Positions 2,392-40,916 of a DNA stretch of 64,000 nt are shown one piece after another; the stretch's first letter is position 1, and each line of letters starts with the position of its first letter. The stretch lies in IMG/VR virus record IMGVR_UViG_3300014205_000193. The stretch is one strand, 5' to 3'. The DNA is from a virus (lineage: Duplodnaviria; Heunggongvirae; Uroviricota; Caudoviricetes). The notes beneath the pieces were generated by a model that worked only from the letters and a program-made list of their open reading frames with translations, did no database searches and was not told where the DNA came from. A program made the position numbers and the translations under genes.

Positions 2392-3399
2392 TTACATTCT
2401 CATAATACTTACAGCTTGCGACAATAATCTGCCATAGTCTGCCGCAGTCTGTTTATACTTTACAAAAAAATCAACATTGTCTTCTTTCGGTTGCATAAAT
2501 GGTGGCCATTTAATAATAAATGCAGAGCCATGTTCTTTCCAGATTGCCCGTCCTACTTCTATAGCCGCATTTAATCCGGGACCATCGTTATCATAGGCGA
2601 GGTATGTAGTTTTACTACGAAAAAACTTACTGAACTCATCAGACCATGTGTTAGCGCCAAAGGTCTGTGTCACAGCATTAATTCCATTTTGCCTACAAAT
2701 CATCATATCGAACTCACCCTCTACAATAACAACTACCGGGTTTGGTTTTATTACAGCTTCCCAGGGGAAGAGTTGGTTCTTAGCATACTCAGTACTCCAT
2801 TTTTTATGGAATTTTAGATTAGCTAACTTGCCTGTAATATCAGGTATAGGGATAGTTACCGTACCCTGTATGAAACCTAGGCGCCATTTCCTAATAGACT
2901 CTTCGGTTAACCCTCGATCACGTTGTAGTAGCTGTAGAGCATAAGGCTGCTGAAATAACCAATCATGGGCAGTTTGCGCACGACGAGCATCAACTAATAG
3001 GGTTAATTCTGCCGTTTCTTTTTTATGCTCTTGACTATTTTCATACTCTTCTATCTGTTCAATATGCTCTGCATTTGTTATCGTATTAGGAAGATCTACC
3101 TCTATTTTGCCAGATGGCAGGGTACGAATAATAAAGTTGGAAGCATTACCTGTACTTCCACATGCCATACATTTATACCCTCCTGATAGTATATTAACAC
3201 GTAGATTGGGTGTTGTTTTATCTACATGAAAAGGGCATAGTGCTACATACCATGGATACTTAGACTCCACCAATTGATTAGGCAACACACGATTGTAAAA
3301 CTCTAAATAGTTATACTTAGGTCGCCAACCATCAGGATGTTGTGTGGTTTCTATATTGTTAAAGCCTATCCGCACACTATTTTCCTTTGTTATTACCAT
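2392..3399 (-). CDS. DNA primase (CHC2 zinc finger + TOPRIM)
   Basis: CHC2 zinc-finger motif CPFHVDKTPN...YKCMACGSTGN, and TOPRIM motif VVVIVEGEFDMMICRQNGINAV (E..D acidic pair). Confidence 0.8.
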   Translation of the reverse strand: MVITKENSVRIGFNNIETTQHPDGWRPKYNYLEFYNRVLPNQLVESKYPWYVALCPFHVDKTTPNLRVNILSGGYKCMACGSTGNASNFIIRTLPSGKIEVDLPNTITNAEHIEQIEEYENSQEHKKETAELTLLVDARRAQTAHDWLFQQPYALQLLQRDRGLTEESIRKWRLGFIQGTVTIPIPDITGKLANLKFHKKWSTEYAKNQLFPWEAVIKPNPVVVIVEGEFDMMICRQNGINAVTQTFGANTWSDEFSKFFRSKTTYLAYDNDGPGLNAAIEVGRAIWKEHGSAFIIKWPPFMQPKEDNVDFFVKYKQTAADYGRLLSQAVSIMRM

Positions 3400-5670: not shown

Positions 5671-7041
5671 TTATGTACCGGCTTCACCTGCTGTCGCAAA
5701 ACTCTTTACACCGATAGGGTGTATAGACAAGGTTTGCTTATCCGTAATTCCAAATTCATATGTAATACCGGCATTACCATCACGCTGTTTAGCTATAATA
5801 ACCTCTAGTATATTATCCTCCAGGGCATTATTGTAGTAACCTTCTCGATACAGTAACAGCACTAAATCTGCATCTTGTTCGAAGTTTCCACAATCGCGTA
5901 AATCAGATATGACGGGTCTTTTATCTTTCCTACTCTCTGTACCTCGATTAACTTGAACTAGTAGACATATATGTACATTCTCATCTTGTGCAATTTTTTC
6001 AATTTCATTAAGTTTAGTTGACATTGTCCCTGCGCGATCTCGTGCAACATTAACGTCATCCAGGCGGTCGAATAAGTCAATAAACACAACTTGAGGAGTG
6101 AAGCCACTGCGCCTAGCCCGTCGTATGGACGCTAATACTCCAGGAACTGTTATACCCCTAGTTGGTACACAAGCATAGTTCCAGTTGTTAGCTATATGTT
6201 CTGTACTCATTTTAATTTTTTTAAATATATCTGCGCCTGGCTCAGCCTCATGAATACGGGTCATTGCCCGTAAGTGCGCCCCCGTTAGAATTGCATCCAT
6301 GCGGTCATGCTCACTATCGAATCCCTGTTCTGGGCATATGTTTACGATCCCTATTTTATTCCTGCCCATATTAGCCATCAAATTAGTTTTAAAGAAACTT
6401 TTACCCATAGAGGTACGCCCAGCAATGATTGATATCTTAGTAGGCGCGTAGCCAGGCCCCAAATGCTTATCAAAATCTGACCATCCACTGTATACGGGCT
6501 TAATACCACGTCGCTGCACCAAGCCTGCATGTCTTCTGGGTAATAACGCGTCAGACATAATTACTTCGATCTTAGCATGACCTTTGATCCCAATACCGAG
6601 CAAGGACTCTTCTGTTTCTGCTACAACAGTAGTGATGTCTGCTGTTTTGTCTATTGCTCTAGTATACCCTTCATATAACTTCATAATGGTTTGCCGACGA
6701 ATATTGAGTTTATCCAATTTGTCAAATACGTAATCTAGCGTGGGTCTGTTGGTTATATCACTTGTACCCAACTGTTCTAAGTACGTAGCTAAGGAAGTGC
6801 TGGTTTTACCCTTTGCTTGCATAATTGCGATGACTTCTTTGTAAGTGACATGCCCCTTGCCCGCCGTCATGGCATACTCTTTGGCAGCATCGAATATGTC
6901 TCGTAAATACGGATCAAAAAATAAAGCAGATTCACCCCTATTAGTTATATCATCTACGTTACTATCTCGCAGTAGATGCTGGAGGATTGTTACTTCAGAA
7001 TCCTGACATTGGTGTTCACTGACATCTGGGTACGGTATCAT
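5671..7041 (-). CDS. DnaB-family replicative DNA helicase
   Basis: Walker A IIAGRTSMGKSFF and the DnaB C-terminal signature VQVNRGTESRKDKRPVISDLRDCGNFEQDADLVLLLYRE. Confidence 0.85.
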   Translation of the reverse strand: MIPYPDVSEHQCQDSEVTILQHLLRDSNVDDITNRGESALFFDPYLRDIFDAAKEYAMTAGKGHVTYKEVIAIMQAKGKTSTSLATYLEQLGTSDITNRPTLDYVFDKLDKLNIRRQTIMKLYEGYTRAIDKTADITTVVAETEESLLGIGIKGHAKIEVIMSDALLPRRHAGLVQRRGIKPVYSGWSDFDKHLGPGYAPTKISIIAGRTSMGKSFFKTNLMANMGRNKIGIVNICPEQGFDSEHDRMDAILTGAHLRAMTRIHEAEPGADIFKKIKMSTEHIANNWNYACVPTRGITVPGVLASIRRARRSGFTPQVVFIDLFDRLDDVNVARDRAGTMSTKLNEIEKIAQDENVHICLLVQVNRGTESRKDKRPVISDLRDCGNFEQDADLVLLLYREGYYNNALEDNILEVIIAKQRDGNAGITYEFGITDKQTLSIHPIGVKSFATAGEAGT

Positions 7042-16470: not shown

Positions 16471-16659
16471 ATGTTAAAATATAACACTGTTAAATTGCAG
16501 GCTTTAAAATGGGGTATTTCTGAAGGTCGGATCATTAAACTAATAGCTGATGGTCGTATTCCGACTGCTACTAGAATTGGTCGGGCATGGGTACTCCCCA
16601 ATGTTGTGAAAGACCCTCGTAAATGCCCTGGTTGGCAATTAGGGCGGAAAAGAAAATGA
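16471..16659 (+). CDS. small helix-turn-helix DNA-binding protein
   Basis: 62-aa ORF with an HTH-like segment LQALKWGISEGRIIKLIADGRIP. Confidence 0.4.
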   Translation: MLKYNTVKLQALKWGISEGRIIKLIADGRIPTATRIGRAWVLPNVVKDPRKCPGWQLGRKRK

Positions 16660-17699
16660 GAAAAAGAAATTTAATTAAAGACATTCCAGGATACAACGGA
16701 AAATATCGTATTGGTGAAGATGGGGTAGTATATAGGAGACAGATAACATACATCAAAGTAAAGGGTTTTTGTGATCCTACAGGGTACAAAAGTGTTCGAT
16801 TATATGCTGATGGGTATAGTGGTGTAAACATGTCTATCCATAGGCTTGTTGCAACTGTGTTTATAGAGAATAAACGCAACTTACCAATTGTACATCACAT
16901 TGACGGCAACCCTAGTAATAACTATAAAGGAAACTTGGAATGGTCTTCTTATTCACACAATAATAAGCATGCTTATGCGGTTAGTCGTGAGAAATATAAT
17001 CCGACTATTGATATTCCGAAAGAACAATTTGTTAATCTCCAGGATGCGAAGATAGCTAATCTCTCTAGTAAGCAAGAGTTATTTGTTCCATATTTGTACG
17101 ATCCAGCATACAAAGTCTCTAACAGAGGGCGTATACTATCTGTTAAGCAGGGTAAAACTAAACTACTGCGTCAGAAGCAGACTAGAGGTGGTTATTGTGC
17201 TCTTTCTCTACTGGTCACAGGCAGGGTTAAACATGTAAATATACATCGACTTGTCGCAGAACACTTTATTCCTAACCCAAATAATTTTAAAGTTGTTAAC
17301 CATAAGAATGGGATTAAGACAGATAACAGGGTTGAAAATTTAGAGTATTGTTCACATTCCTACAATACGCAACATGCTTGGAATACAGGTTTGATTACTC
17401 TTACACCAACCAAATTGGCTAAATTACATAAATATGGTTTTAAACCCAATAGGCAGCAGACCTACACCGAGAAATTAAAGCGATGCCGGAGTAACAACCC
17501 CTATCAAATTGCTGAGATATCTTCGAACGGGAGAATACTAAAAACCTGGTATTTTGCTAAAGATGTACAACAAGAGATGGGTATAAATAGGAAGTTGATC
17601 GGATTATGTGCTAAAGGAAAAATTACTGCTGTTGCAGGGAGAATATTTAGATATGTCCAAGAAGATAATTTGGGTGCTTTAAAGGTAGTGTCTGTATGA
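16656..17699 (+). CDS. HNH homing endonuclease with tandemly duplicated NUMOD4 + HNH_3 modules
   Basis: Two copies of the module: first IPGYNGKYRIGEDG ... HRLVATVFI..VHHIDGNPSNN..NLEW, second VPYLYDPAYKVSNRG ... HRLVAEHFI..VNHKNGIKTDN..NLEY. ATGA overlap with the upstream stop. Confidence 0.75.
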   Translation: MRKRNLIKDIPGYNGKYRIGEDGVVYRRQITYIKVKGFCDPTGYKSVRLYADGYSGVNMSIHRLVATVFIENKRNLPIVHHIDGNPSNNYKGNLEWSSYSHNNKHAYAVSREKYNPTIDIPKEQFVNLQDAKIANLSSKQELFVPYLYDPAYKVSNRGRILSVKQGKTKLLRQKQTRGGYCALSLLVTGRVKHVNIHRLVAEHFIPNPNNFKVVNHKNGIKTDNRVENLEYCSHSYNTQHAWNTGLITLTPTKLAKLHKYGFKPNRQQTYTEKLKRCRSNNPYQIAEISSNGRILKTWYFAKDVQQEMGINRKLIGLCAKGKITAVAGRIFRYVQEDNLGALKVVSV

Positions 17700-18259
17700 G
17701 CACACCGCAGGTAATAGATATACAGGACTGGATACGAAATGAGGTGCTGCCTCGTCGTCGCATGGACGCGCATATACATGAGATTGTATTCGGTCAGCCG
17801 TCATTAGGGTTTGCTGCTTATGAGGCGGACTATGATATAATCCGTAATCCTACTACGGAGTATATGAAAAGTAATGGGGAGTGCTCCTGTACTGACCCAG
17901 TGTATCTTAACAAATGTGTATGTGATAAAAAAGATGCTTTTTACGCTAAGACTAAGTTAGATAGTTCCACAGCTAAGTTTTTCGGACACTATGCAGATTG
18001 TTTACGAGTTGTTCCACAATATACTGCTAACACAACAGAAGCGTTGTATCTGGTGCATATTCTGCGGCATATTTTAAAGTACACAATTGAATCACAAGTC
18101 ACAGGTTGGCGAGTGCAGCTTGAATCCGTACTCAGAACTGGTGGTTTTGAATCATCTATATGCAGTGAAAGTTTACCTATGGCAATAGGGGATCTATTAT
18201 TAATTTATTTTAAAATGCATACCGAGGGTTTCCCTTTAAAACAAATGGAGGATTTATGA
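17696..18259 (+). CDS. hypothetical protein
   Basis: 187-aa ORF. Confidence 0.5.
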   Translation: MSTPQVIDIQDWIRNEVLPRRRMDAHIHEIVFGQPSLGFAAYEADYDIIRNPTTEYMKSNGECSCTDPVYLNKCVCDKKDAFYAKTKLDSSTAKFFGHYADCLRVVPQYTANTTEALYLVHILRHILKYTIESQVTGWRVQLESVLRTGGFESSICSESLPMAIGDLLLIYFKMHTEGFPLKQMEDL

Positions 18260-19161
18260 GTATAAGAAGTAAAAACAAGCAAGGCGACAAATCGACGCCA
18301 AAGGGAGCCGAGGCTGTAGCTGCCACCGCCGCAAACACGAGTGTTACTAGTGCCACTACAATTAATGTGCCTAATGGTACCTCTATATGGTACTCAACAG
18401 GCTATACCCAGACAGACCCTTACGGGCCTGCTACTAATGGTTGGATGGACAATGTCAGCGAGATCGTCAGCACCAAAGCATATATTCACAGAAGATTGCT
18501 TAATGGTAAGAAGAAGCGAGGAGACACCACAGGAGCTAACAATAGCAGTAATCGTTTAAAGATACTCTCTCCTATAGTTATGTACCGGTTTGTTAAAGAT
18601 CGGTTTAGAATCTTAGAACGTTCCCGGCTAGCTACTCGATTAGATAAGGTAGCAAAGCTGATGGAGAATGCGAAAGTGCTAGGACAGATCGCGATGGCTG
18701 ATCGTATTAGTGAGAGGTTTGGAAAGCTAATAAGGGAGCAGGAGCTACTGGCTTGCGGATATACTAAATATTTACCAAAGAAGTTAGTTCAGCAGTTCAT
18801 TGACTTGACTACTAACAAGGTAATCAAGTTGACTCCATTAAAGAATTATGTTAGGCCCATTCCTAAAAATGTGCAGAAGGTATTGGATGATGTGCAGAAA
18901 AAGAAGTTGTTCGATGGTTACATAATAATGCATACTGATGTCAATAATACCGCAGTAGAAAAGACACGAGAAGAGAAAAAGGACCCTATACTATTTGGTA
19001 CTCTTGATGACGCACCTGACATTCTATATTTTATTGCCGACTGGATTGATGAATACTGTGATTTAACTTTTGACCAGTTGATTGATACACTTGACCTGAC
19101 TAAGGAAGAATACAAGATTGAATCTGATGTTGAACAGTCTTTCTTGGACACCATACTTTAA
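18256..19161 (+). CDS. hypothetical protein, paralog of 32962-33930
   Basis: Shares the C-terminal block R(P)IP...Y(I/V)I(M/L)H.D...DPILFG....YFIADW.DE.CDLTF..L with the 32962 gene. Confidence 0.55.
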   Translation: MSIRSKNKQGDKSTPKGAEAVAATAANTSVTSATTINVPNGTSIWYSTGYTQTDPYGPATNGWMDNVSEIVSTKAYIHRRLLNGKKKRGDTTGANNSSNRLKILSPIVMYRFVKDRFRILERSRLATRLDKVAKLMENAKVLGQIAMADRISERFGKLIREQELLACGYTKYLPKKLVQQFIDLTTNKVIKLTPLKNYVRPIPKNVQKVLDDVQKKKLFDGYIIMHTDVNNTAVEKTREEKKDPILFGTLDDAPDILYFIADWIDEYCDLTFDQLIDTLDLTKEEYKIESDVEQSFLDTIL

Positions 19162-19780: not shown

Positions 19781-20066
19781 CTTATTACGACAGGCAGCGC
19801 ACTTAGCTAGTAAGCCACCTCTCTTCTCTGCTCCTGGTTTTTTTAGCTTTTTGCCCAGGCAGTTTATGCATATTTGTAACTATTTTAATTATCGTAAGTA
19901 TCTTAACAAATTGAAGATATGTAAGGTACTTCATAAATATAGCCGCTTGAGAGTGGATTTAAAGACAGGCGCATTATCTGTGCAAATCATGCCTTACGCA
20001 AACTTGAGAACGATAGCTATAACTTGTACTATTAGAAACAACTAACAACTATCTACAGGAGTAATT

Positions 20067-20348
20067 ATGGAATTTTTAACAGTGTATGCACAAGAACGGA
20101 TTACGGGAGAGGTGCATTATGATCTCCCGGTATTAATAAATGGGGAGGCTAACGGCTACACTGGCAATCCTATAAAATTAGATCCAGGAACCATTGATGT
20201 GTCTGTAGAGGCTGAGCATGCCGAGTCACACCACATACGACTGGAGAACACCACCGTGACTACTCCTCTTAAAGTAACTATTATGTTTGGGGATGAATAT
20301 CCTGAAATCCCGGATGTACCAGAATTTGACGGAGGTCCTAATGTTTAA
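20067..20348 (+). CDS. hypothetical protein
   Basis: 93-aa ORF with AGGAG RBS (ctacaggagtaattatg). Confidence 0.45.
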   Translation: MEFLTVYAQERITGEVHYDLPVLINGEANGYTGNPIKLDPGTIDVSVEAEHAESHHIRLENTTVTTPLKVTIMFGDEYPEIPDVPEFDGGPNV

Positions 20349-32961: not shown

Positions 32962-33930
32962 ATGATTCGAAAATTTAGGGATGGTAGTATGGAGTTGGAG
33001 ATATTTGTCAATTTTGTAATTGATAAGTCTCTTCCTAAATGGGCTGTTGAAAAGAAGGTGGAGGTGCCTGGGGATAGTAATGATCCTATGTCTGAGGAAG
33101 AAGGTGGTGGTGATAAGTTTACAGTGTCCGTCAGTCGGCAGGCATTTAATATGCGCTTGGATACACAGCCTGCGACACCTCCTGTTCCTCTTTTTGGAAC
33201 ACGGCTGGGCCAGTTTGAAGAGGATTCTGATGAATTCACCGTCAAGACTATTAAGCCACGTCGTACACTGAAGAGTCGTATTTTAGGGCTACTCTTTTCT
33301 TCTGCAACAAAGGAGCCTAAGAAAGATCCGCCTAAAGAAGTTGATTGGTTTTTTAAGGCAGTATTTAACAGCCTGAGCCAGGCAGAGAAGTTTAACGAGG
33401 ATTCCGCGGCCTTAGTGGAGCAAGTGGCTCAGGCTAAGCAGTTGGGGCAGCAGGCTTTGTTGGAGAAGTTAATAACCTCTTTGGATATCAAATTGTACGA
33501 AAATCAACTGATAGCTGTGGGACAAGGGCGCTATATTACAGATTCAAATGTTATTAAGTTTGCTACTGAGTCTATGCGCGGGCTTAGGTTGGATTGGATT
33601 AGGAATTTTATAAGACCTATTCCATCGGCGGTCGGTATACTCAAAATAGATGCAGATAAGTTAAAGGTATTCGATAACTATGTGATCCTTCATTATGACC
33701 CAGAGGGTAAGGCTACTGCTATGACGATAGAAGAGGAGCAGGCGGAGTTGGCCAGACGTCGTGATCCCATCTTGTTTGGTGTAATTTCAGGCAGTCGTAA
33801 GCTGTACTTTATTGCAGATTGGAAGGATGAGATATGTGACTTGACCTTCACAGATTTGTTAGAAAGACTATCAAACCCGGCTAGCCAATTACATAGGCAC
33901 GGTCCTGTTTTAAATCAGGGTGTAGTGTGA
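32962..33930 (+). CDS. hypothetical protein, paralog of 18256-19161
   Basis: Shared block DPILFGVISGSRKLYFIADWKDEICDLTFTDLL. Confidence 0.55.
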   Translation: MIRKFRDGSMELEIFVNFVIDKSLPKWAVEKKVEVPGDSNDPMSEEEGGGDKFTVSVSRQAFNMRLDTQPATPPVPLFGTRLGQFEEDSDEFTVKTIKPRRTLKSRILGLLFSSATKEPKKDPPKEVDWFFKAVFNSLSQAEKFNEDSAALVEQVAQAKQLGQQALLEKLITSLDIKLYENQLIAVGQGRYITDSNVIKFATESMRGLRLDWIRNFIRPIPSAVGILKIDADKLKVFDNYVILHYDPEGKATAMTIEEEQAELARRRDPILFGVISGSRKLYFIADWKDEICDLTFTDLLERLSNPASQLHRHGPVLNQGVV

Positions 33931-33937
33931 GGTTTAT

Positions 33938-34183
33938 ATGAAATATTACAGAATAGTAAAGAAGCACAGATATTGGATTCAAGAACGTTTCTTTTTCTTT
34001 CTTTGGCTATCCATGTACACTGCTGACCATGGATTTGATACAGAAGAAGAAGCCCTCGCAAAGCTCGCTACGATAGTTAAGCCTAGTGTGTCCGCCAGGA
34101 AACCGGAAGTATGCAGAGTGTTTGCGGTAGATAAAGGAAAGATCACAGATGTGACACTTACAAGAACTAGTGACACCATATAA
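33938..34183 (+). CDS. hypothetical protein
   Basis: 81-aa ORF. Confidence 0.4.
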   Translation: MKYYRIVKKHRYWIQERFFFFLWLSMYTADHGFDTEEEALAKLATIVKPSVSARKPEVCRVFAVDKGKITDVTLTRTSDTI

Positions 34184-34206
34184 CCATTTATTTCAAAGGA
34201 GGCGTT

Positions 34207-34518
34207 ATGCCAAGAGTCAGTAAGATTTATTCACCAGGAATGTCCAAAGCACAGTTTAAAGCTCGTCTTAAGGAGCTGCAAAAGGAATTTAAGACCGATG
34301 GTGCTATCGGTGCGCAGTTTGGGATCTCTCGTCAGGCTATTCATCAGTTGCGAGAGAAGTGTAAGATTAAAGCGCTCACCAGCCGCAATGTTCCTCGTAA
34401 TCGGGAGATTACTAAACGTTACAATGGAGGAGTGCATCCATTCAAGTTGGCGCAGGATTATGAAATGAGTGTATCGCAGATATACCGCGTATTGAATAGT
34501 TCAAAAGGGAAGAAGTAG
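34207..34518 (+). CDS. small HTH DNA-binding protein
   Basis: GAIGAQFGISRQAIHQLREK HTH-like segment. Confidence 0.45.
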   Translation: MPRVSKIYSPGMSKAQFKARLKELQKEFKTDGAIGAQFGISRQAIHQLREKCKIKALTSRNVPRNREITKRYNGGVHPFKLAQDYEMSVSQIYRVLNSSKGKK

Positions 34519-34525
34519 GATATTT

Positions 34526-34834
34526 GTGGCAACGTATAAAGAAACTACAAATTACACAATAAAGGAAGCGTTTGACGCATATGATAAGCAGAATCCGCAT
34601 GTATATGAGGCTATGCGAGATCGTGCGCTTGCTGCTATTAACGCGGGTAAACGCAAGATATCGTTTAAGTTAATTTTGAATGTGATACGTTGGGACTATT
34701 ATATGGGAACTCATGATGCCACTTGCTCATTTAAGATTAATGATGCTTATTCAGCACACTATGCTAGAAAATTTGTGGAAGACTATCCTCGGTATGAAGA
34801 GCATATAGAATTTAGAGCATTGCGCAGTGAATAG
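34526..34834 (+). CDS. hypothetical protein
   Basis: 102-aa ORF. Confidence 0.45.
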   Translation: MATYKETTNYTIKEAFDAYDKQNPHVYEAMRDRALAAINAGKRKISFKLILNVIRWDYYMGTHDATCSFKINDAYSAHYARKFVEDYPRYEEHIEFRALRSE

Positions 34835-35260
34835 TTGTCTTTCAGGGGGTCTGTTGATGCAGGCTCCTTGTTTTGTTGTTTAAAAACTCCGGGTCAGGTG
34901 CCCGGGGTTTCTTTTACGGGAGTAGATGATATGAAATTTAGATACCTAGTGGATTGTGTAGATGAGGCTGCTCGGGATAGATTTGTGACGGCGATAGTGC
35001 AGTCAGAAAATATGACGGGTGTAACTGTATTTGGTGATACAGTGTACCCGGAACCCACGATACCATCATTAATATTCTTTCCACCTTGTAGACATGAGTT
35101 TAACAAGGTGGGTTCAGGAATCCGCTGGTGTGCTAAGTGTGGCTCTTTGGAATATGAGAGTGCGATCTCTGGGCAGTTTAATTATGTAAAGACTCCAGAA
35201 TATTTTAAGGTCATCGATGTATCACCAGATACTCCACCTATAACTACAGGAGAAGGATAA
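34835..35260 (+). CDS. hypothetical protein (start uncertain, possibly 34930)
   Basis: 141-aa ORF. Confidence 0.4.
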   Translation: MSFRGSVDAGSLFCCLKTPGQVPGVSFTGVDDMKFRYLVDCVDEAARDRFVTAIVQSENMTGVTVFGDTVYPEPTIPSLIFFPPCRHEFNKVGSGIRWCAKCGSLEYESAISGQFNYVKTPEYFKVIDVSPDTPPITTGEG

Positions 35261-35613
35261 TGGTTACTCTTACATACGAAGCCTGGAAGGCTGAAGGTGT
35301 TGCACTGTTTGGTGAAGACGCCACAAATTGGCGTTTCAAGTGTGTGCGCTGCGGCAATGTGCAGACCATTAAGGATTTCTTGGCTGCGGGAGTCTCCGAG
35401 GAGACTGCACGTAATACAGTGTTCTTTTCCTGCTTAGGTAGGTTTAAAGAGGGCGTTGGATGTGACTGGACACTGGGCGGGTTGTTCTCTATAAATAAGC
35501 GACAAGTGATACGGCCTGACACCGACCCGGTTCCAGTGTTTGAGTTTGATTCCCCCGTGGGTTGGCAGGGCGAGGTAATTGCGAAAGAGACCACAACCAT
35601 GAAAGAGGTATAA
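35260..35613 (+). CDS. hypothetical protein
   Basis: 117-aa ORF; CVRCGN Cys pair. Confidence 0.45.
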   Translation: MVTLTYEAWKAEGVALFGEDATNWRFKCVRCGNVQTIKDFLAAGVSEETARNTVFFSCLGRFKEGVGCDWTLGGLFSINKRQVIRPDTDPVPVFEFDSPVGWQGEVIAKETTTMKEV

Positions 35614-35677
35614 TGCTCTTTTATATTAGTTATAGAAAACCATTGTATTTTATTTAATATTATCCTATATTAAAGAC

Positions 35678-36247
35678 ATGAAATTATCAACATATGCAAA
35701 AAAACTGGGTGTAACATATCGTACGGCCTGGAATCACTATCAGCAAGGAACTATACCTGGGGCATACGCTCTAGCAAATGGGACTATTATTGTACCCGAA
35801 GATAAAATATCAGCGATTGGATTAACGGCTACATATTCTCGCGTTTCTTCTTCTGAGAACAAAACTAACCTTGTAGCTCAGTCAAAGCGAGTGCAGGAAT
35901 TTTGTGCGGCTAAGGGTTGGGTTGTTTCTTTTGTTGTTGAGGAGTGTGGTAGCGGGCTTAACGATTCAAGAAAAAAATTAGAAAAGCTCTTGGATAATAA
36001 GCTGGTTACTCGTATTGTGGTAGAGCACAAGGATCGCCTTACGCGCTTTGGCTTTAATTATTTGAAAAAATTATGGCCTGGAGATATTGTCGTAATAAAT
36101 GAAGCGACGGAAGACGAAAAAGACTTAATGCAGGACTTCGTGTCTCTTGTTACGTCTTTCATGGCACGCCTTTATGGTCGAAGACGTAGTAGACGTGTAA
36201 CAGAAAAACTTATTAAAAAACTAAACGATGATTCAAAAAGCATATAA
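35678..36247 (+). CDS. tnpA: IS607-family transposase TnpA (serine recombinase with N-terminal MerR-like HTH)
   Basis: N-terminal HTH MKLSTYAKKLGVTYRTAWNHYQQG; catalytic-serine region YSRVSSSENK; resolvase-like core. Confidence 0.8.
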   Translation: MKLSTYAKKLGVTYRTAWNHYQQGTIPGAYALANGTIIVPEDKISAIGLTATYSRVSSSENKTNLVAQSKRVQEFCAAKGWVVSFVVEECGSGLNDSRKKLEKLLDNKLVTRIVVEHKDRLTRFGFNYLKKLWPGDIVVINEATEDEKDLMQDFVSLVTSFMARLYGRRRSRRVTEKLIKKLNDDSKSI

Positions 36248-37388
36248 ATTTAAAATTTATCCAAATGCTTCCCAAGCAGTTTTGTTAAACAAGACTTTTG
36301 GTGCTTGCCGTTATGCTTGGAACCAGTGGGTTGAAAATTTTAATAAGCCAAAAGAAGAAATCAAAGTTTTTAACACGCCCAAACAATTTAAAACTGACTT
36401 AGGCTGGATGAAGGAAATTAGCTCAGCCGCTATTCAACAAAAAGAGCAGGACTTCTTTGCGTTCAAGCAGCAGTTTTTTAACCAGAAGCGCAAAACTAAG
36501 TTAGGTAGACCAGCGTTTAAATCTCGTAAGAATAAGCAGTCTTATAGATTACCAAATCAGAAGTTTTACGTCGAAGACACTAAAATCAGGTTGGAAAAGA
36601 TTGGTTTCATTAAGGCTGTTTTTGATCGCGCAATTCCTGTTGGTGTGAAGTTTATAAATTGTACTATTAGTAAAGATGTAGTTGGTGACTTTTTTGTGTC
36701 TATCCTTGTGGAGCAAGATGTCCAACAGTTGCCTAAAACAGGAAAGACCATAGGTATTGACGTGGGGTTAAAGTCTTTTGCTGTATTGAGTGACGAGACT
36801 GTTATTGATAACCCAAAATTTTTCAGAGAGAACCAATCTGGATTAAAGCGGATTCAACAGCACTTGTCTCGCAAGGTCAAAGGTTCTAACCATTATAAAA
36901 AAACCAAACGACAGGCAGCAAGAGTTCAAAGAAAAACTGCAAGACAACGCAATTACTTCCTGCACAATGTCTCGTCCTATATTGTAAATAATTTTGATGT
37001 TATCGCAATAGAGGATTTAAACATTAAAGGAATGGTGAAAAATCATTGTCTTGCTAAGTCTGTTCATGACGCTTCTTGGTCTGAGTTCTTCAGACAACTT
37101 GATTACAAGGCCGCGTGGTACGGGAAGACATTGAGGGTGGTCGGAAGGTTTGAACCCACGTCCAAGACTTGTAACGTGTGTGGTTTCTATTATAAGGATA
37201 TGACTCTTGACATAAGAGAATGGGCTTGTCCTTGTTGCGAGACTGTACACGACAGAGATGTAAACGCAGCTAAAAACATTTTAAAACAATCCGTAAGAGT
37301 TGATGCGGAGCTACAGACGTGGAGTGAGTATCAGACTTTAGGAAACCAAACTGAAGCGACTCTCTGTGAAGTGTCGAGGGTTTTATGA
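36228..37388 (+). CDS. tnpB: TnpB (OrfB) RuvC-like RNA-guided nuclease family, IS200/IS605/IS607
   Basis: N-terminus KAYKFKIYPNASQ; RuvC-like IGIDVGLKSFAVLSD ... AIEDLNIKGM; C-terminal zinc finger CNVCGFYYK...CPCCETVHDRDVNAAKNI. Confidence 0.85.
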   Translation: MIQKAYKFKIYPNASQAVLLNKTFGACRYAWNQWVENFNKPKEEIKVFNTPKQFKTDLGWMKEISSAAIQQKEQDFFAFKQQFFNQKRKTKLGRPAFKSRKNKQSYRLPNQKFYVEDTKIRLEKIGFIKAVFDRAIPVGVKFINCTISKDVVGDFFVSILVEQDVQQLPKTGKTIGIDVGLKSFAVLSDETVIDNPKFFRENQSGLKRIQQHLSRKVKGSNHYKKTKRQAARVQRKTARQRNYFLHNVSSYIVNNFDVIAIEDLNIKGMVKNHCLAKSVHDASWSEFFRQLDYKAAWYGKTLRVVGRFEPTSKTCNVCGFYYKDMTLDIREWACPCCETVHDRDVNAAKNILKQSVRVDAELQTWSEYQTLGNQTEATLCEVSRVL

Positions 37389-37726
37389 AAAAGGAATACT
37401 TTTCTATACAACCCACAACTATGAGTCCTAGAACTTGGAATATGTTTTCTCACGAGGGTAAAGACTTTGCAGGAGGCATCAAACTTATAGATACTCACGC
37501 TACTATGAGAATAGCTGAGTTCTATGGTAAGGATAACATTGTACCGGTGTTAGTCACAGAAGACCCAGCAGGTGATTTTAGGGGTTGGCTCGCAAAAGGT
37601 GACCTTATTCCTGAGATGATATACCACAAGAAGGTATTTGAGATATGCTTTGCTTATGGGTCGGCGGTAGAAGTGGAGAAGGGTAGGGGCGAGGTGATAC
37701 CTCTTAAGATAGAGAGGACGCTTTAA
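37385..37726 (+). CDS. hypothetical protein translationally coupled to tnpB
   Basis: ATGA overlap with the tnpB stop; 113 aa. Confidence 0.4.
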   Translation: MKKEYFSIQPTTMSPRTWNMFSHEGKDFAGGIKLIDTHATMRIAEFYGKDNIVPVLVTEDPAGDFRGWLAKGDLIPEMIYHKKVFEICFAYGSAVEVEKGRGEVIPLKIERTL

Positions 37727-37838
37727 TGGTTTTCAAGCAGACGCCTATGATTGAGAGTATGGAAATTGCCGTTGTCCGCATCTTTGATAACTCTGATAAT
37801 ATAGTTACAAATGTTGTGATATTTTTGAAAAGAAGGGA

Positions 37839-38201
37839 TTGCTAATTATGAAGTATTATATCTCAACACAGATTCACGGAGAAAAAGAAGTTGATAAAGA
37901 GACATACATTGCATATGAGCAGGCTGCGGGTTTTATTTCTAAGTTTGGCCGAGATGCGGTTGCAACCGCATCCTTCTTTTTTGGTGGCCTTATAAGTGGT
38001 CGTGTTGATTATTCTGAGAAGGTTGAAACGCCTAATTTAATTTCTGAAGCACCTAAAGTCTGTAGTAGATCAACTGATTGCGCGTACATTAGAGTGGAAG
38101 GGCATTGTAAAGGGGTAACCTGTAAGGTATACGACCCAATTACAGCACTGGAGTCTGCGGAGCGAGACCTAGGTGACCGGGATCTTGACGATGGATGCTG
38201 A
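37839..38201 (+). CDS. hypothetical protein
   Basis: 120-aa ORF. Confidence 0.45.
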   Translation: MLIMKYYISTQIHGEKEVDKETYIAYEQAAGFISKFGRDAVATASFFFGGLISGRVDYSEKVETPNLISEAPKVCSRSTDCAYIRVEGHCKGVTCKVYDPITALESAERDLGDRDLDDGC

Positions 38202-38273
38202 TTACTAATGCAGGGAACATTCTATGGACATTTTGTTTATCGGAGGTCACACGTATAAGAAAGGCAGGGTATA

Positions 38274-38531
38274 GTGCGAGCAAAGGTCTTAAATAAAGCA
38301 GGTGACGTCAAGGAGCTGAACGGGCATAAGGATGCATTTACTCGCTGTATGCAATACTTTATAGGGCGGACGATATTGTTTAAGAAGCATCCTCTTTATA
38401 AGGGTTGGTATAGACGAAGTGGTTCTTATTTTTTAGCTTGGCATCCGTCATGGCTTCGAGAGGTTAAGAGGGTAATTAAAAAAGGCTCTAAGACGGTCTC
38501 ATGTACTGCAAAAAGAAAAAGGGGTGATTGA
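38274..38531 (+). CDS. hypothetical protein
   Basis: 85-aa ORF. Confidence 0.4.
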   Translation: MRAKVLNKAGDVKELNGHKDAFTRCMQYFIGRTILFKKHPLYKGWYRRSGSYFLAWHPSWLREVKRVIKKGSKTVSCTAKRKRGD

Positions 38532-38704
38532 TGGGAACGCAAGTTAATAAAGCGGCCTACGAGGCACTAATTAAAGAGGACATGGATGCAGTAGTGGCCG
38601 AGATGTCGAAATCCCCGGAGCGAGCACATGTGATTCAGATTCTCCAGTGGTCCGTTGATGCATTATATCCATCCACAGCAAGATTTGAGCAGTCTTCAAT
38701 ATGA
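38531..38704 (+). CDS. small hypothetical protein (57 aa)
   Basis: TGATG and ATGA overlaps with both neighbouring genes suggest a coupled small gene. Confidence 0.3.
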   Translation: MGTQVNKAAYEALIKEDMDAVVAEMSKSPERAHVIQILQWSVDALYPSTARFEQSSI

Positions 38705-38898
38705 CTTTCAGTGCTGATATAGACTGCCCGCATTGCACAGCGGTATTCCCTGTAAAATTACATGAGGGGGATCAGGGCAGCTGTCCAAAATGTGGTGCTA
38801 AATTTTTTATAGACAGCATAGGTTTGGATCATGATTGGTGCTTCCCTTCGTGGGAAAATCAACCTATCCAAGCCACAAACCACGAGACATCTAATTGA
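38701..38898 (+). CDS. small zinc-ribbon protein
   Basis: CPHCTAVFPV...CPKCGAKF. Confidence 0.4.
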   Translation: MTFSADIDCPHCTAVFPVKLHEGDQGSCPKCGAKFFIDSIGLDHDWCFPSWENQPIQATNHETSN

Positions 38899-38918
38899 TT
38901 ACTCGACCTTAAAATAAG

Positions 38919-38947
38919 AAAAGCCGAGGAGCCTCGGCTTTAAAGGA
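38919..38947. terminator. bidirectional rho-independent terminator
   Basis: aaaaGCCGAGGagcCTCGGCttta: 7-bp GC stem flanked by an A-run and a T-run. Confidence 0.6.
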
Positions 38948-39010
38948 ATTAAAAATGAATGTCTCCAACCTCGAATCTGTATAACCGGTCATTCAGCCGG
39001 TTTTATTAAC

Positions 39011-39169
39011 TTATATCTCTAATGATCGCACGCCCATTGCAGGCGGTGCATTCTTTAACTCTGTTATCCTGTTTTCACAGGCTGTCACTCCATCCACAAA
39101 ACCAACCTTGTATCCGCGCTGGAACTCGGCGGCTGTTTGTGCATTGGAATCTATTGTAGGACTGTTCAT
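39011..39169 (-). CDS. small protein (52 aa), second gene of reverse-oriented cassette
   Basis: ATG lies 3 nt after the stop of the Gly-rich gene (taaggtatg); GAGG upstream; MNSPTIDSNAQTAAEFQRGYKVGFVDGV... Confidence 0.35.
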   Translation of the reverse strand: MNSPTIDSNAQTAAEFQRGYKVGFVDGVTACENRITELKNAPPAMGVRSLEI

Positions 39170-39172
39170 ACC

Positions 39173-39457
39173 TTAATCCTCTATCTTATCACCAATCACC
39201 TTGCCTGCTGCTGCTCCGCCTACCGCAGCTACGCCTCCGACGACTGCCGTAGTCCCGGCAACAGTTCCTGTGATCGCAGCTGCTGACGCACTGGCCAATG
39301 CTGCTCCACTTAAGGTACTAATAGCTGTGCCGGTCCCGGCCGCACCTAATAGTCCTGCCGCTCCGGCGATTGGAAGTATCACGGGTGTCAATAATACCGC
39401 AGCACCACCTGCCGCCACTGCCCCTACGGCAATACATGCAACTTTGAATGGATTCAA
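39173..39457 (-). CDS. Gly/Ala-rich glycine-zipper-like small membrane protein
   Basis: 94 aa made almost entirely of G/A/V/L/T (AVGAVAAGGAAV..AGAAGLLGAAGTGTA..) with a charged tail KVIGDKIED. It is the only minus-strand gene inside the plus-strand block. Confidence 0.5.
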   Translation of the reverse strand: MNPFKVACIAVGAVAAGGAAVLLTPVILPIAGAAGLLGAAGTGTAISTLSGAALASASAAAITGTVAGTTAVVGGVAAVGGAAAGKVIGDKIED

Positions 39458-39469
39458 TCACGCCTCCAG

Positions 39470-39500
39470 GTTAAGTAAAGAAAGCCGACCAACCAAGGCC
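39470..39500. terminator. bidirectional terminator-like hairpin
   Basis: aaaGCCGaccaaccaaggCCGGCttt hairpin with an A-run and T-run. Confidence 0.45.
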
Positions 39501-39722
39501 GGCTTTATATTTCGAAACTTTCATTAATGAATAATATATACTCAAATCCATGCAATGTCAACATTTATTTTTTAGTTACTTGATCAGCTTTTAATAGCTT
39601 TTAGGGGTCAGTAGTTGTAAACTCCATAACCCAGTTCAACTTCTCGTGCATTTAGTAGGTGCAGATGTTATTTTGTAGTACATATAGTAATAGGATGATC
39701 TAAATCGAAAAAAGGGGTTATT

Positions 39723-40916
39723 ATGTCACAAGGTCCCGCCAATCCAGAGAAATGCGGTAAGAAGATAGACGAATCTGAGTATGTGTGGATTATCACGTCA
39801 CATATTAATCAGTCCACGCCGGATGCCAAGCTCATCCGCATGTTGAAGGAGAAGTATGGGTTTAAGGTTAGCTTGCCGAGTCTGCTGGCGTTTAAGCGTA
39901 ATTACTACCCGACACGTCTCACCATGCTGAAGAAGGAGACCATCAAGTTCAAACAGGAGCAGACGGGTCAGATACAGACCTTTATTGATGAGTCTCTGAG
40001 ACAGGCGGACGCTATTGAGGTAGAGATTGGCGGCATGACGAAGCAAGTTGAACTCGTTACCCGTCAGCTGGATTTTGTCCGTAAGTTTGAATGCTTGTTC
40101 CAGAACGCCATTGATCGCTATGTGGATGCATACGACCCGGCTTCGCCTGATCCGTTCTTATACACCTCATCACCTAAATCTGAGGCCCAGCGTCTGCTGA
40201 CGGAGGTAGTTACGGGTATGGGTGAGGAGGGGCGTAACGCGCTGGTGGCATATGTTCAGACTCGAAACGCTTTCCCGCTGGTTAAATTGTTCACGCTTCT
40301 CACAGCCAAGTTGAAAGACCTCCGCATGGCGAAGCACGACATTCATAAGAACATCTTCAAATCATATAGGAATCTATCCATCTCTCAGGAGATGACAGTT
40401 ATATTTGAGCGTTATAACGGTATCATTGTGGAGGAGTTCTTCCCGGACAAATCCAACATAGATGCGCAGAAGTTCGCCAGGGTTAATCAGAAGGTACGCG
40501 CACTCTTTGATGAACTCAATACACGTTATCAGGGCGTAGAGACTCCGTCTGACCATGGCCGTAATCCTACCACCGAGGAAATACAGAAGCTAGACCAGGG
40601 CATCATGCCTACCTCATCTCCAATAGAGGAACCCGCCTTAAAAGGTCAGAAGGGACGCCAACCAGCTAAATCCACCGTCATCGCACGTGAACGCGCTAAA
40701 GCCGCAGCCACCACCGCCGTGATAGAGGATACCGAGGATAGCGAAATAGAACCCACCTCTATGGAAGTAGAACCGCCTGACTCCGATACTACCGACTATA
40801 CACCTGAAGAGGCCGCTACGGTATATAAAGAGATAGAGACCCAAGCAGCCGAACCCGACCTATTCAGACAGGCACTAGGAGATGAAGATACACGCGGAGA
40901 ATCACATGCCGAGTAA
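39723..40916 (+). CDS. hypothetical protein with acidic C-terminus
   Basis: 397-aa ORF; GGGG RBS. Confidence 0.5.
   Translation: MSQGPANPEKCGKKIDESEYVWIITSHINQSTPDAKLIRMLKEKYGFKVSLPSLLAFKRNYYPTRLTMLKKETIKFKQEQTGQIQTFIDESLRQADAIEVEIGGMTKQVELVTRQLDFVRKFECLFQNAIDRYVDAYDPASPDPFLYTSSPKSEAQRLLTEVVTGMGEEGRNALVAYVQTRNAFPLVKLFTLLTAKLKDLRMAKHDIHKNIFKSYRNLSISQEMTVIFERYNGIIVEEFFPDKSNIDAQKFARVNQKVRALFDELNTRYQGVETPSDHGRNPTTEEIQKLDQGIMPTSSPIEEPALKGQKGRQPAKSTVIARERAKAAATTAVIEDTEDSEIEPTSMEVEPPDSDTTDYTPEEAATVYKEIETQAAEPDLFRQALGDEDTRGESHAE

Follow-up and report, generated by a model that had tools for sequence, protein, structure and literature searches.

An IS607-family insertion sequence with a TAT-type core, probably intact, in a gene overlap of a phage-like replicon

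Insertion sequences of the IS607 family combine a serine transposase, TnpA, with TnpB, a nuclease guided by an omega RNA. By exchange at a 2-bp core, TnpA releases the element in circular form. Excision leaves a donor joint made up of the TAM (transposon-associated motif) with the right flank, TnpB–omega RNA cuts this joint, and homologous repair restores the element (PMC10690162, PMC6188088, PMC10711439, PMC13565253). In such systems the TAM is expected immediately 5′ of the left end, matching the target preference of the transposase. Most members carry a GG core at both ends and insert at or downstream of GG (PMC6188088, PMC10690162, PMC13565253). Because the review limits this rule to "most" IS607 members, non-GG exceptions are probably known. 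IS607, IS1535, ISC1904/ISC1926 and, minus its intron, CboIStron all encode a serine TnpA with a helix-turn-helix (HTH) followed by an overlapping tnpB, as does the element described here. The closest solved natural TnpB is that of ISDra2 (8bf8, 8exa, 8h1j), an IS200/IS605 element in which the partner is a Y1 HUH transposase rather than a serine recombinase. The ISDra2 TAM is TTGAT. Pairing of a serine TnpA with a "typical", ISDra2-like TnpB is polyphyletic and has been described as the "Ser-1" branch (PMC10691335).

The DNA analyzed is a 64,000-nucleotide stretch (the window) of IMG/VR virus record IMGVR_UViG_3300014205_000193, part of a 236,752-bp metagenomic contig. Positions 35612–37422 very probably constitute an intact IS607-family insertion sequence of 1811 bp, inserted into the ATGA overlap of two co-transcribed phage-like genes that are both still intact. 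An earlier note, made by a model from the letters of the sequence, had proposed an IS607-family element inserted in a phage genome. Its three open reading frames (ORFs) lie where it put them (tnpA 35678–36247, tnpB 36228–37388 and ORF3 37385–37726, with an ATGA overlap between the last two), and insertion into a phage-like replicon is supported, with the ends now fixed by family comparison. The order is left end (LE), tnpA, tnpB and an omega RNA that ends at the right end (RE). This anatomy fits the published scheme point for point, except that a TAT-type core and target replace GG. As in IS607-family elements, terminal inverted repeats are lacking, the target is not duplicated except for a short shared core, subterminal motifs occur at both ends, the omega RNA lies over the 3′ end of tnpB and RE, and the motif targeted by TnpA is also the presumed TAM. 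Among the differences are the core (R-TAT at the left, where R is a purine, and CTAT at the right, instead of GG or TGGG) and the absence of the group I intron.

The two genes of the element overlap by 20 nt.

35678–36247, plus strand: tnpA, IS607-family serine transposase, 189 aa (N-terminal HTH, C-terminal catalytic domain, YSRVSSS)
36228–37388, plus strand: tnpB, RNA-guided endonuclease, 386 aa (family models, RuvC triad, zinc finger)

TnpA scored 152 bits against the NCBIfam equivalog NF033518 "IS607 family transposase" (cutoff 110; residues 5–172) and matched Pfam Resolvase (PF00239). Residues 52–182 align to the catalytic domains of the IS607-family TnpA structures 6dgc, 6dgb, 3lhk and 3ilx, with YSRVSS on the catalytic-serine motif YARVSS of the solved proteins. 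TnpA is accordingly a serine recombinase in which an HTH at the N terminus precedes the catalytic domain, which upholds both the HTH and the YSRVSSS motif read earlier. TnpB scored 292 bits against NF040570 (guided_TnpB) and matched Pfam HTH_OrfB_IS605, OrfB_IS605 and Cas12f1-like_TNB; its score was higher for the IS200/IS605-type model (362 bits) than for the IS607-type model (179 bits). It aligns end-to-end with ISDra2 TnpB (PDB 8bf8/8exa; residues 3–356, E = 8e-66). The RuvC triad is intact, D178/E262/D344 falling on D191/E278/D361 of the 408-aa ISDra2 chain, and both CxxC pairs of the zinc finger are present (CNVC...CPCC), so the RuvC-like domain and zinc finger claimed for TnpB are real features of the protein. 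The closest TnpBs, 60–78% identical, are all metagenomic and on phage-like contigs.

Boundaries were set by comparison with 14 related metagenomic loci (L numbers below), using blastn for pairs of loci. Related elements are 1800–1815 bp long.

35608–35611, plus strand: left junction GTAT, putative TAM (R-TAT)
35610–35611 (AT) or 35609–35610 (TA), plus strand: core dinucleotide inside the left junction
35612–35677, plus strand: LE, 66 nt (alignment A2; rule of TAT, 21 nt, TAGAAA)
35631–35651, plus strand: LE arm of the subterminal inverted repeat, motif TATAGAAAA
37388–37408, plus strand: RE arm of the subterminal inverted repeat, TTTTCTATA, complement of TATAGAAAA, conserved in all relatives

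At the right, the 3′ alignment of the closest TnpB loci (A1) showed DNA conservation for 34 nt beyond the tnpB stop, to ...TTTTCTATnnAAnCnnACAACTAT, and an abrupt loss to the right of CAACTAT in every locus. A metagenome scan with a conserved 28-nt motif returned ten further loci. Near-identical right ends stand beside unrelated flanks (L028-type against L040, L034 against L036), and the break falls exactly after CAACTAT. Because this breakpoint recurs across loci with differing flanks, the right end was placed at 37422. At the left, a TAGAAA motif (35633–35638) lies exactly 21 nt past the junction. The pattern TAT, 21 nt, TAGAAA is found once per locus, at the expected place, in 11 loci (four tnpA-bearing, one tnpA-deleted derivative, three solo-tnpB and three miniature copies), whereas chance predicts about 0.008 matches per locus. 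This rule, together with the unrelated sequence upstream of TAT in the three miniature-element copies, sets the left end at 35612. An earlier boundary model, with ATG shared by both junctions and a TAATG overlap in the empty site, was dropped when the family comparison yielded the TAT/21-nt rule. The junction of an excised circle would join RE ...CAACTAT to AATGCTCTTTT...LE.

The best-conserved block at both ends is the subterminal inverted repeat, TATAGAAAA at 35631 in LE and TTTTCTATA at 37400 in RE, a plausible candidate for the TnpA binding motif. The repeats are subterminal, not terminal, and the two junctions share only AT/TA (within TAT). The ends are therefore of the IS607 kind: they have neither terminal inverted repeats nor a target duplication, and a 2-bp core common to element and target joins them. 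The element is slightly poorer in GC (0.35–0.39) than its flanks (0.42–0.49). A 12-mer direct repeat was also seen, CCACAACCATGA at 35591–35602 (left flank, 10–20 nt before the junction) and CCACAACTATGA at 37413–37424 (right end and flank). It may be due to chance, as such lengths were common in the repeat scan, or could hint that TnpA prefers targets resembling its own end.

The genes on either side were examined in relation to these boundaries.

35260–35613, plus strand: upstream phage gene, VVA0879 family, 117 aa (NCBIfam NF041591, 100 bits; phrog_32023)
37385–37726, plus strand: ORF3 as called, 113 aa, its ATG overlapping the tnpB TGA as ATGA
37421–37726, plus strand: native ORF3 from Met13, 101 aa (start of the Gordonia-phage homologs)
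37385–37420, plus strand: 12-codon upstream extension of ORF3, in-frame element (RNA-scaffold) sequence

Deletion of 35612–37422 rebuilds the empty site as ...ATG AAA GAG GTA TGA GTC CT... (GGTATGAGTCC), in which ...AAAGAGGTAT meets GAGTCCTAG... (also written ...CCATGAAAGAGGTATGAGTCCTAGAACTTGG...). The result is an ATGA stop/start overlap of two phage genes. At present the upstream gene stops at TAA (35611–35613), formed by T of the flank and AA of the element; in the empty site its last codons would be GTA TGA, which leaves the C terminus unchanged. The Met13 ATG of ORF3 (37421–37423) spans the other junction and consists of the terminal AT of the element and G of the flank. The only homologs of ORF3 are Gordonia phage Cafasso gp164 (39%) and Morgana gp169 (43%), each of 102 aa. 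Both begin exactly at Met13, an invariant column, which identifies ORF3 as an uninterrupted downstream phage gene; Met13 is its start under both boundary models.

The earlier note had left it undecided whether the 113-aa ORF was a passenger or the interrupted flank. It is a flank gene, but judged by its homologs it is not interrupted, and it is very improbable that ORF3 is a cargo gene translationally coupled to tnpB. Such coupling would account for the ATGA overlap and for the Shine-Dalgarno-like GAGGG (37376–37380) placed 4 nt before the 37385 ATG. However, family conservation stops at 37422, within ORF3 codon 13, no relative has an ORF3 homolog beyond its right end, and the Gordonia-phage homologs are free-standing genes that start at Met13. 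The stop region with ATGA (ATGAAAAAGG / TTATGAAAAAGG) is moreover found in L033 and L042. Since these share TTATGAAAAAGG beside unrelated flanks, the apparent coupling is inherited element sequence and no adaptation to ORF3, and the idea that ATGA evolved to couple ORF3 to tnpB was rejected. On this comparison ORF3 is the downstream phage gene, neither cargo nor interrupted. Because of GAGGG, the 12 additional residues could still be made; they may truly extend the N terminus or may be an artefact of ORF calling. A 55-aa ORF over the tnpB stop of the P0009 contig is of the same artefact type, and that contig has two tnpB genes 3 kb apart, beside an HNH endonuclease and an RNA ligase.

A structured RNA was found where the paradigm places it.

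37271–37422 (minimal module 37290–37422), plus strand: omega RNA scaffold, ~133–152 nt (alignments A1/A3, RNAalifold, pair counts, covariance model R1)
37290–94/37305–09, 37316–20/37371–75 and 37324–29/37359–64, plus strand: scaffold helices 1–3
37336–41/37351–56, 37378–82/37410–14 and 37392–96/37401–05, plus strand: scaffold helices 4–6
37423–37442, plus strand: predicted guide, GAGTCCTAGAACTTGG..., the first ~16–20 nt of the right flank, equal to codons 1–7 of native ORF3

The scaffold covers the last ~118 nt of tnpB and stops at the right end, CAACTAT. RNAalifold gave a consensus fold of six helices and 31 pairs for nine distinct family sequences (alignment A3). Counted on these nine sequences, in the same alignment that yielded the structure, 96.4% of cells are paired, against 90.4 ± 0.9% after shuffling (0/500 reach the observed value) and 37–57% in registers shifted by 1–3. 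Changes on both sides of a pair numbered 11, against 5.4 ± 1.5 after shuffling (1/500 reach this) and 0–3 in shifted registers, and several of these compensatory changes fall within the tnpB reading frame. Folded alone, the scaffold of the window has z = −2.3. The earlier note had proposed a covariance-model search for an omega RNA at the 3′ end of tnpB. Our own model, built from A3 (R1), scores 154 bits at 37271–37422, which is one of its training sequences, and has no other significant match in the 64 kb. Outside its training set it also picked out L010, with 30.6 bits; the place is the 3′ end of a match homologous to TnpB, at only 39% identity. Miniature elements keep the sequence from the 37290-equivalent onward, which sets the minimal module at ~133 nt. 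The locus has the arrangement of a TnpB/OMEGA system, a structured RNA over the tnpB 3′ end that terminates at the right end and is followed by variable sequence. An omega RNA at the 3′ end of tnpB and the right end, as the note had suggested, is thus supported, but its proposed placement (37250–37500) is replaced by 37271/37290–37422, with the guide from 37423. In ISDra2, too, a guide RNA of about 130–150 nt lies over the 3′ end of the gene, next to the same D-E-D triad and zinc finger in the protein; both elements have an AT-rich TAM ending in AT, putative in the present case.

We also asked whether the element could be an IStron, in which fusion of a group I intron to an IS607 allows splicing out of the host transcript. 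IStrons of the IS607 type are known (PMC10690162), and the element has the same orientation as its flanking genes. Nonetheless this is the least credible of the readings weighed here: a search of 35000–38500 against Rfam returned no family at E ≤ 1, with the group I intron and RAGATH-18 models included, and the 66 nt from the left junction to tnpA are too short for an intron core.

The core was examined across the family. All ten unique left flanks end in R-TAT (TAT in 10/10; G in six and A in four at −4), and at the right end nine loci have CTAT, the other two (L030, L042) CTAC. An AT core and a TA core both fit, and a TA core (target R-TA-Y) accounts for both CTAC ends without exception. From these flanks the TAM is probably R-TAT. 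At −4 of the right end C is invariant, in contrast to the purine in every left flank, which suggests how TnpB could spare the occupied site.

Relatives of the element occur in several reduced forms. L036 (the whole contig, minus strand) is a 1259-bp tnpA-deleted derivative of the L037 element, in which LE runs straight into the final ~25 nt of tnpA, with tnpB and the RNA intact behind it. L027, L033 and L042 hold tnpA-less elements of 1237–1242 bp that keep the left end of TAT, 21 nt and TAGAAA. A miniature element of ~215 nt is present at three sites (L034, ~2857–3074 in oriented coordinates; L035; L031), each copy preceded by R-TAT and ending CAACTAT. It consists of ~85 nt that are LE-like (83% identical to LE of the full L037 element) and the last 133 nt (the guide-RNA module, 98% identical), and looks like a non-autonomous derivative, akin to a miniature inverted-repeat transposable element, that carries its own guide RNA. 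Inverted partial copies lie at the start of the L034 contig and at L037 1–99; in L037 the inverted copy adjoins the full element's LE, head to head, with ATAT between them. L040 (~6346–6496) holds a solo guide-RNA module of 152 nt, 99% identical to the L028-type right end and without an upstream tnpB. It is at a different site, again preceded by ...GTAT, and could be a deletion product formed via an internal CTAT in tnpB. In L027, GGTCGCCAGTTCGAATCTGGCCGGGGGTA (~1780–1830, oriented; some 50 nt before the insertion point) resembles the T-arm and acceptor 3′ half of a tRNA gene. In L043/L044, ~600 nt downstream of tnpB, the opposite strand carries an AcrVA2-like gene (PF26125; 4778–5749).

The related right ends at differing flanks, and the tnpA-less and miniature derivatives with the same ends, are indirect signs of mobility, and on sequence grounds the derivatives (1237–1259 bp and ~215 bp) show a living family. 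The element is co-oriented with upstream genes in 8/8 loci with a known upstream neighbor (the window, L024, L027, L028, L030, L042, L043 and the P0009 contig). This suggests read-through expression or selection against antisense insertions. An AT/TA core, being palindromic, would by itself favor neither orientation.

These comparisons bear on whether the window copy is a fixed relic, with open genes but merely inherited, neither transposing nor homing. The window holds just one copy, searches of GenBank phages and IMG/VR turned up no empty-site allele, and a second contig with ORF3 has the same neighbors. Against this, neither ORF is truncated and the catalytic residues of both are intact, both ends fit the family consensus, the RNA structure is intact, and close relatives occur at differing sites and as derivatives. 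We consider a relic unlikely. A decayed second copy at 19840–20052 was considered and rejected, as its LE part did no better than shuffles and other parts of the window scored higher. That stretch contains a weak covariance-model match (19923–20052; 12.7 bits, E = 0.75) in an ORF-poor region just before the ribosome-binding site of a gene at 20067, and ends in ACAACTAT / ...AACAACTAACAACTAT. Its 26-nt tail is 20/26 identical to the true right end (z = 2.6); the remainder is not significant against shuffles.

The distribution of the family raises a different possibility, that the phage has co-opted TnpB for attack or regulation, aimed at the host or at competing phages, so that it does not serve the transposon alone. 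The TnpB lineage (≥60% identity) was found only on phage-like metagenomic contigs, the RNA motif has no true match in 185,579 species genomes, and domesticated phage relatives of TnpB (TldR) are known from the literature. The single genome-contig match, L041 (an Anaerolineaceae metagenome-assembled genome), was dismissed as chance, being GC-rich and without similarity outside the pattern. From these searches the element lineage appears confined to phage-like contigs. Yet the RuvC triad is intact, TnpA and the recombination ends are present, and the guide is the element's own flank with no other match in the window, exactly a selfish-homing configuration. Co-option is accordingly improbable.

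The predicted guide GAGTCCTAGAACTTGG occurs once in the window, at the element's own flank; its length of ~16–20 nt is taken from other TnpB systems. Because the only match is this flank, homing into element-free copies of the same phage fits. The part that TnpB might play in phage conflict, raised in the earlier note, is supported only partly, in this form, and there is no sign of host targeting. We propose that the element was inserted by 2-bp-core serine recombination into the 4-bp ATGA overlap, and that TnpA would excise and reintegrate it as a double-stranded DNA circle, as in the studied IS605/IS607 systems. TnpB with its omega RNA (guide, the first ~16–20 nt of ORF3) would cut element-free sites, with a TAM of about GTAT followed by GAGTCCTAGAACTTGG, and repair by recombination with an occupied genome would then bring the element back or let it spread. 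Within a phage, such a cycle would amount to homing among replicating or co-infecting genomes, the natural targets being element-free genomes in the same cell. A review of OMEGA systems has the term "non-restorative homing" for movement into co-infecting phages (PMC13565253, Table 1).

Taking these steps together, we tentatively suggest that a phage-confined IS607-type lineage exchanged a GG core for TA/AT, in concert with an IS605-type TnpB reading an AT-rich R-TAT TAM. This lineage would tell an occupied from an empty site by C at −4 of the right end and spawn tnpA-less and ~215-nt copies moved and homed in trans, and the whole would act as an RNA-guided homing drive among co-infecting phages. 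We hold this composite picture at a little less than even likelihood. Several observations weigh against the main reading, an intact IS607-family insertion in a phage-like replicon. There is no consistent GG at either junction, where "most" IS607 members are stated to have a GG core. The 64-kb window contains one copy only, and GenBank phages and IMG/VR yielded no element-free allele of this phage: megablast of 33000–40000 against GenBank phages gave no match, nor did the exact right flank in IMG/VR. A promoter and terminator scan returned nothing above chance. No virion gene lies within the window, and the replicon is taken to be a phage from its replication, methylase, HNH and PHROG matches and from the Gordonia-phage homologs. 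ORF3, sought among 5.8 billion proteins, matched only itself.

The window encodes a primase, a DnaB-like helicase, a DnaC-like loader, other helicases, DNA methyltransferases, an HNH endonuclease and a Mor-like protein, as well as several PHROG-only families. A large phage is likely but not proven, since these 64 kb include no virion gene. No close DNA relative of the replicon was found among GenBank phages or in IMG/VR, and ORF3 and the upstream gene have no relatives in IMG/VR. The HNH endonuclease gene (16623–17699; phrog_59, E = 5e-67) is another homing-type selfish gene in the same replicon. At 45459–54329 lies a 2,956-aa polyvalent-protein ORF with an ART-PolyVal domain (ADP-ribosyltransferase). 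ART-PolyVal proteins are typical large injected proteins of phages and conjugative elements. Two paralogous ORFs (18256–19161, 301 aa; 32962–33930, 322 aa) match phrog_10081 "transposase" without a Pfam match. They share the C-terminal motif DPILFG...YFIADW.DE.CDLTF and have no evident link to the insertion sequence.

Homologs of TnpA occur in 56 sequenced phage records and those of TnpB in 376. Thermus phage TMA, Nodularia phages, Clostridium phage c-st and Helicobacter/Staphylococcus phages have tnpA–tnpB pairs in large phage genomes, as here, but the sequenced-phage homologs are distant from this element (TnpB ≤43%, TnpA ≤50% identity). Thermus phage TMA, the source of the closest cultured-phage TnpA, was rejected as a near relative, having a different TnpB of 489 aa and no R1 match. 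The free-standing homing endonuclease genes of the T4 Seg/Mob type offer a further parallel, being selfish nucleases between conserved phage genes that are expected to cut the element-free allele when phages co-infect a cell. Here, in contrast, target recognition would be RNA-guided, and the element carries its own recombinase. Given the 56 and 376 phage records and the polyphyletic pairing already described, an IS607/TnpB element in a phage is a known sort of finding. Less standard are the non-GG core with its probable R-TAT TAM, the phage-like confinement and the set of derivatives.

For annotation, the element boundaries are exact and the start of ORF3 belongs at 37421 (101 aa); the "coupled" ORF of 113 aa is an artefact or reflects 12 extra residues gained incidentally. 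These results leave the present view of IS607/TnpB biology as it was. The family offers a compact (386-aa) ISDra2-like TnpB with a ~133-nt scaffold and a probable short, AT-rich TAM, and, as a natural case of a serine transposase with a non-GG core, it bears on the co-evolution of TnpA target choice and the TnpB TAM.

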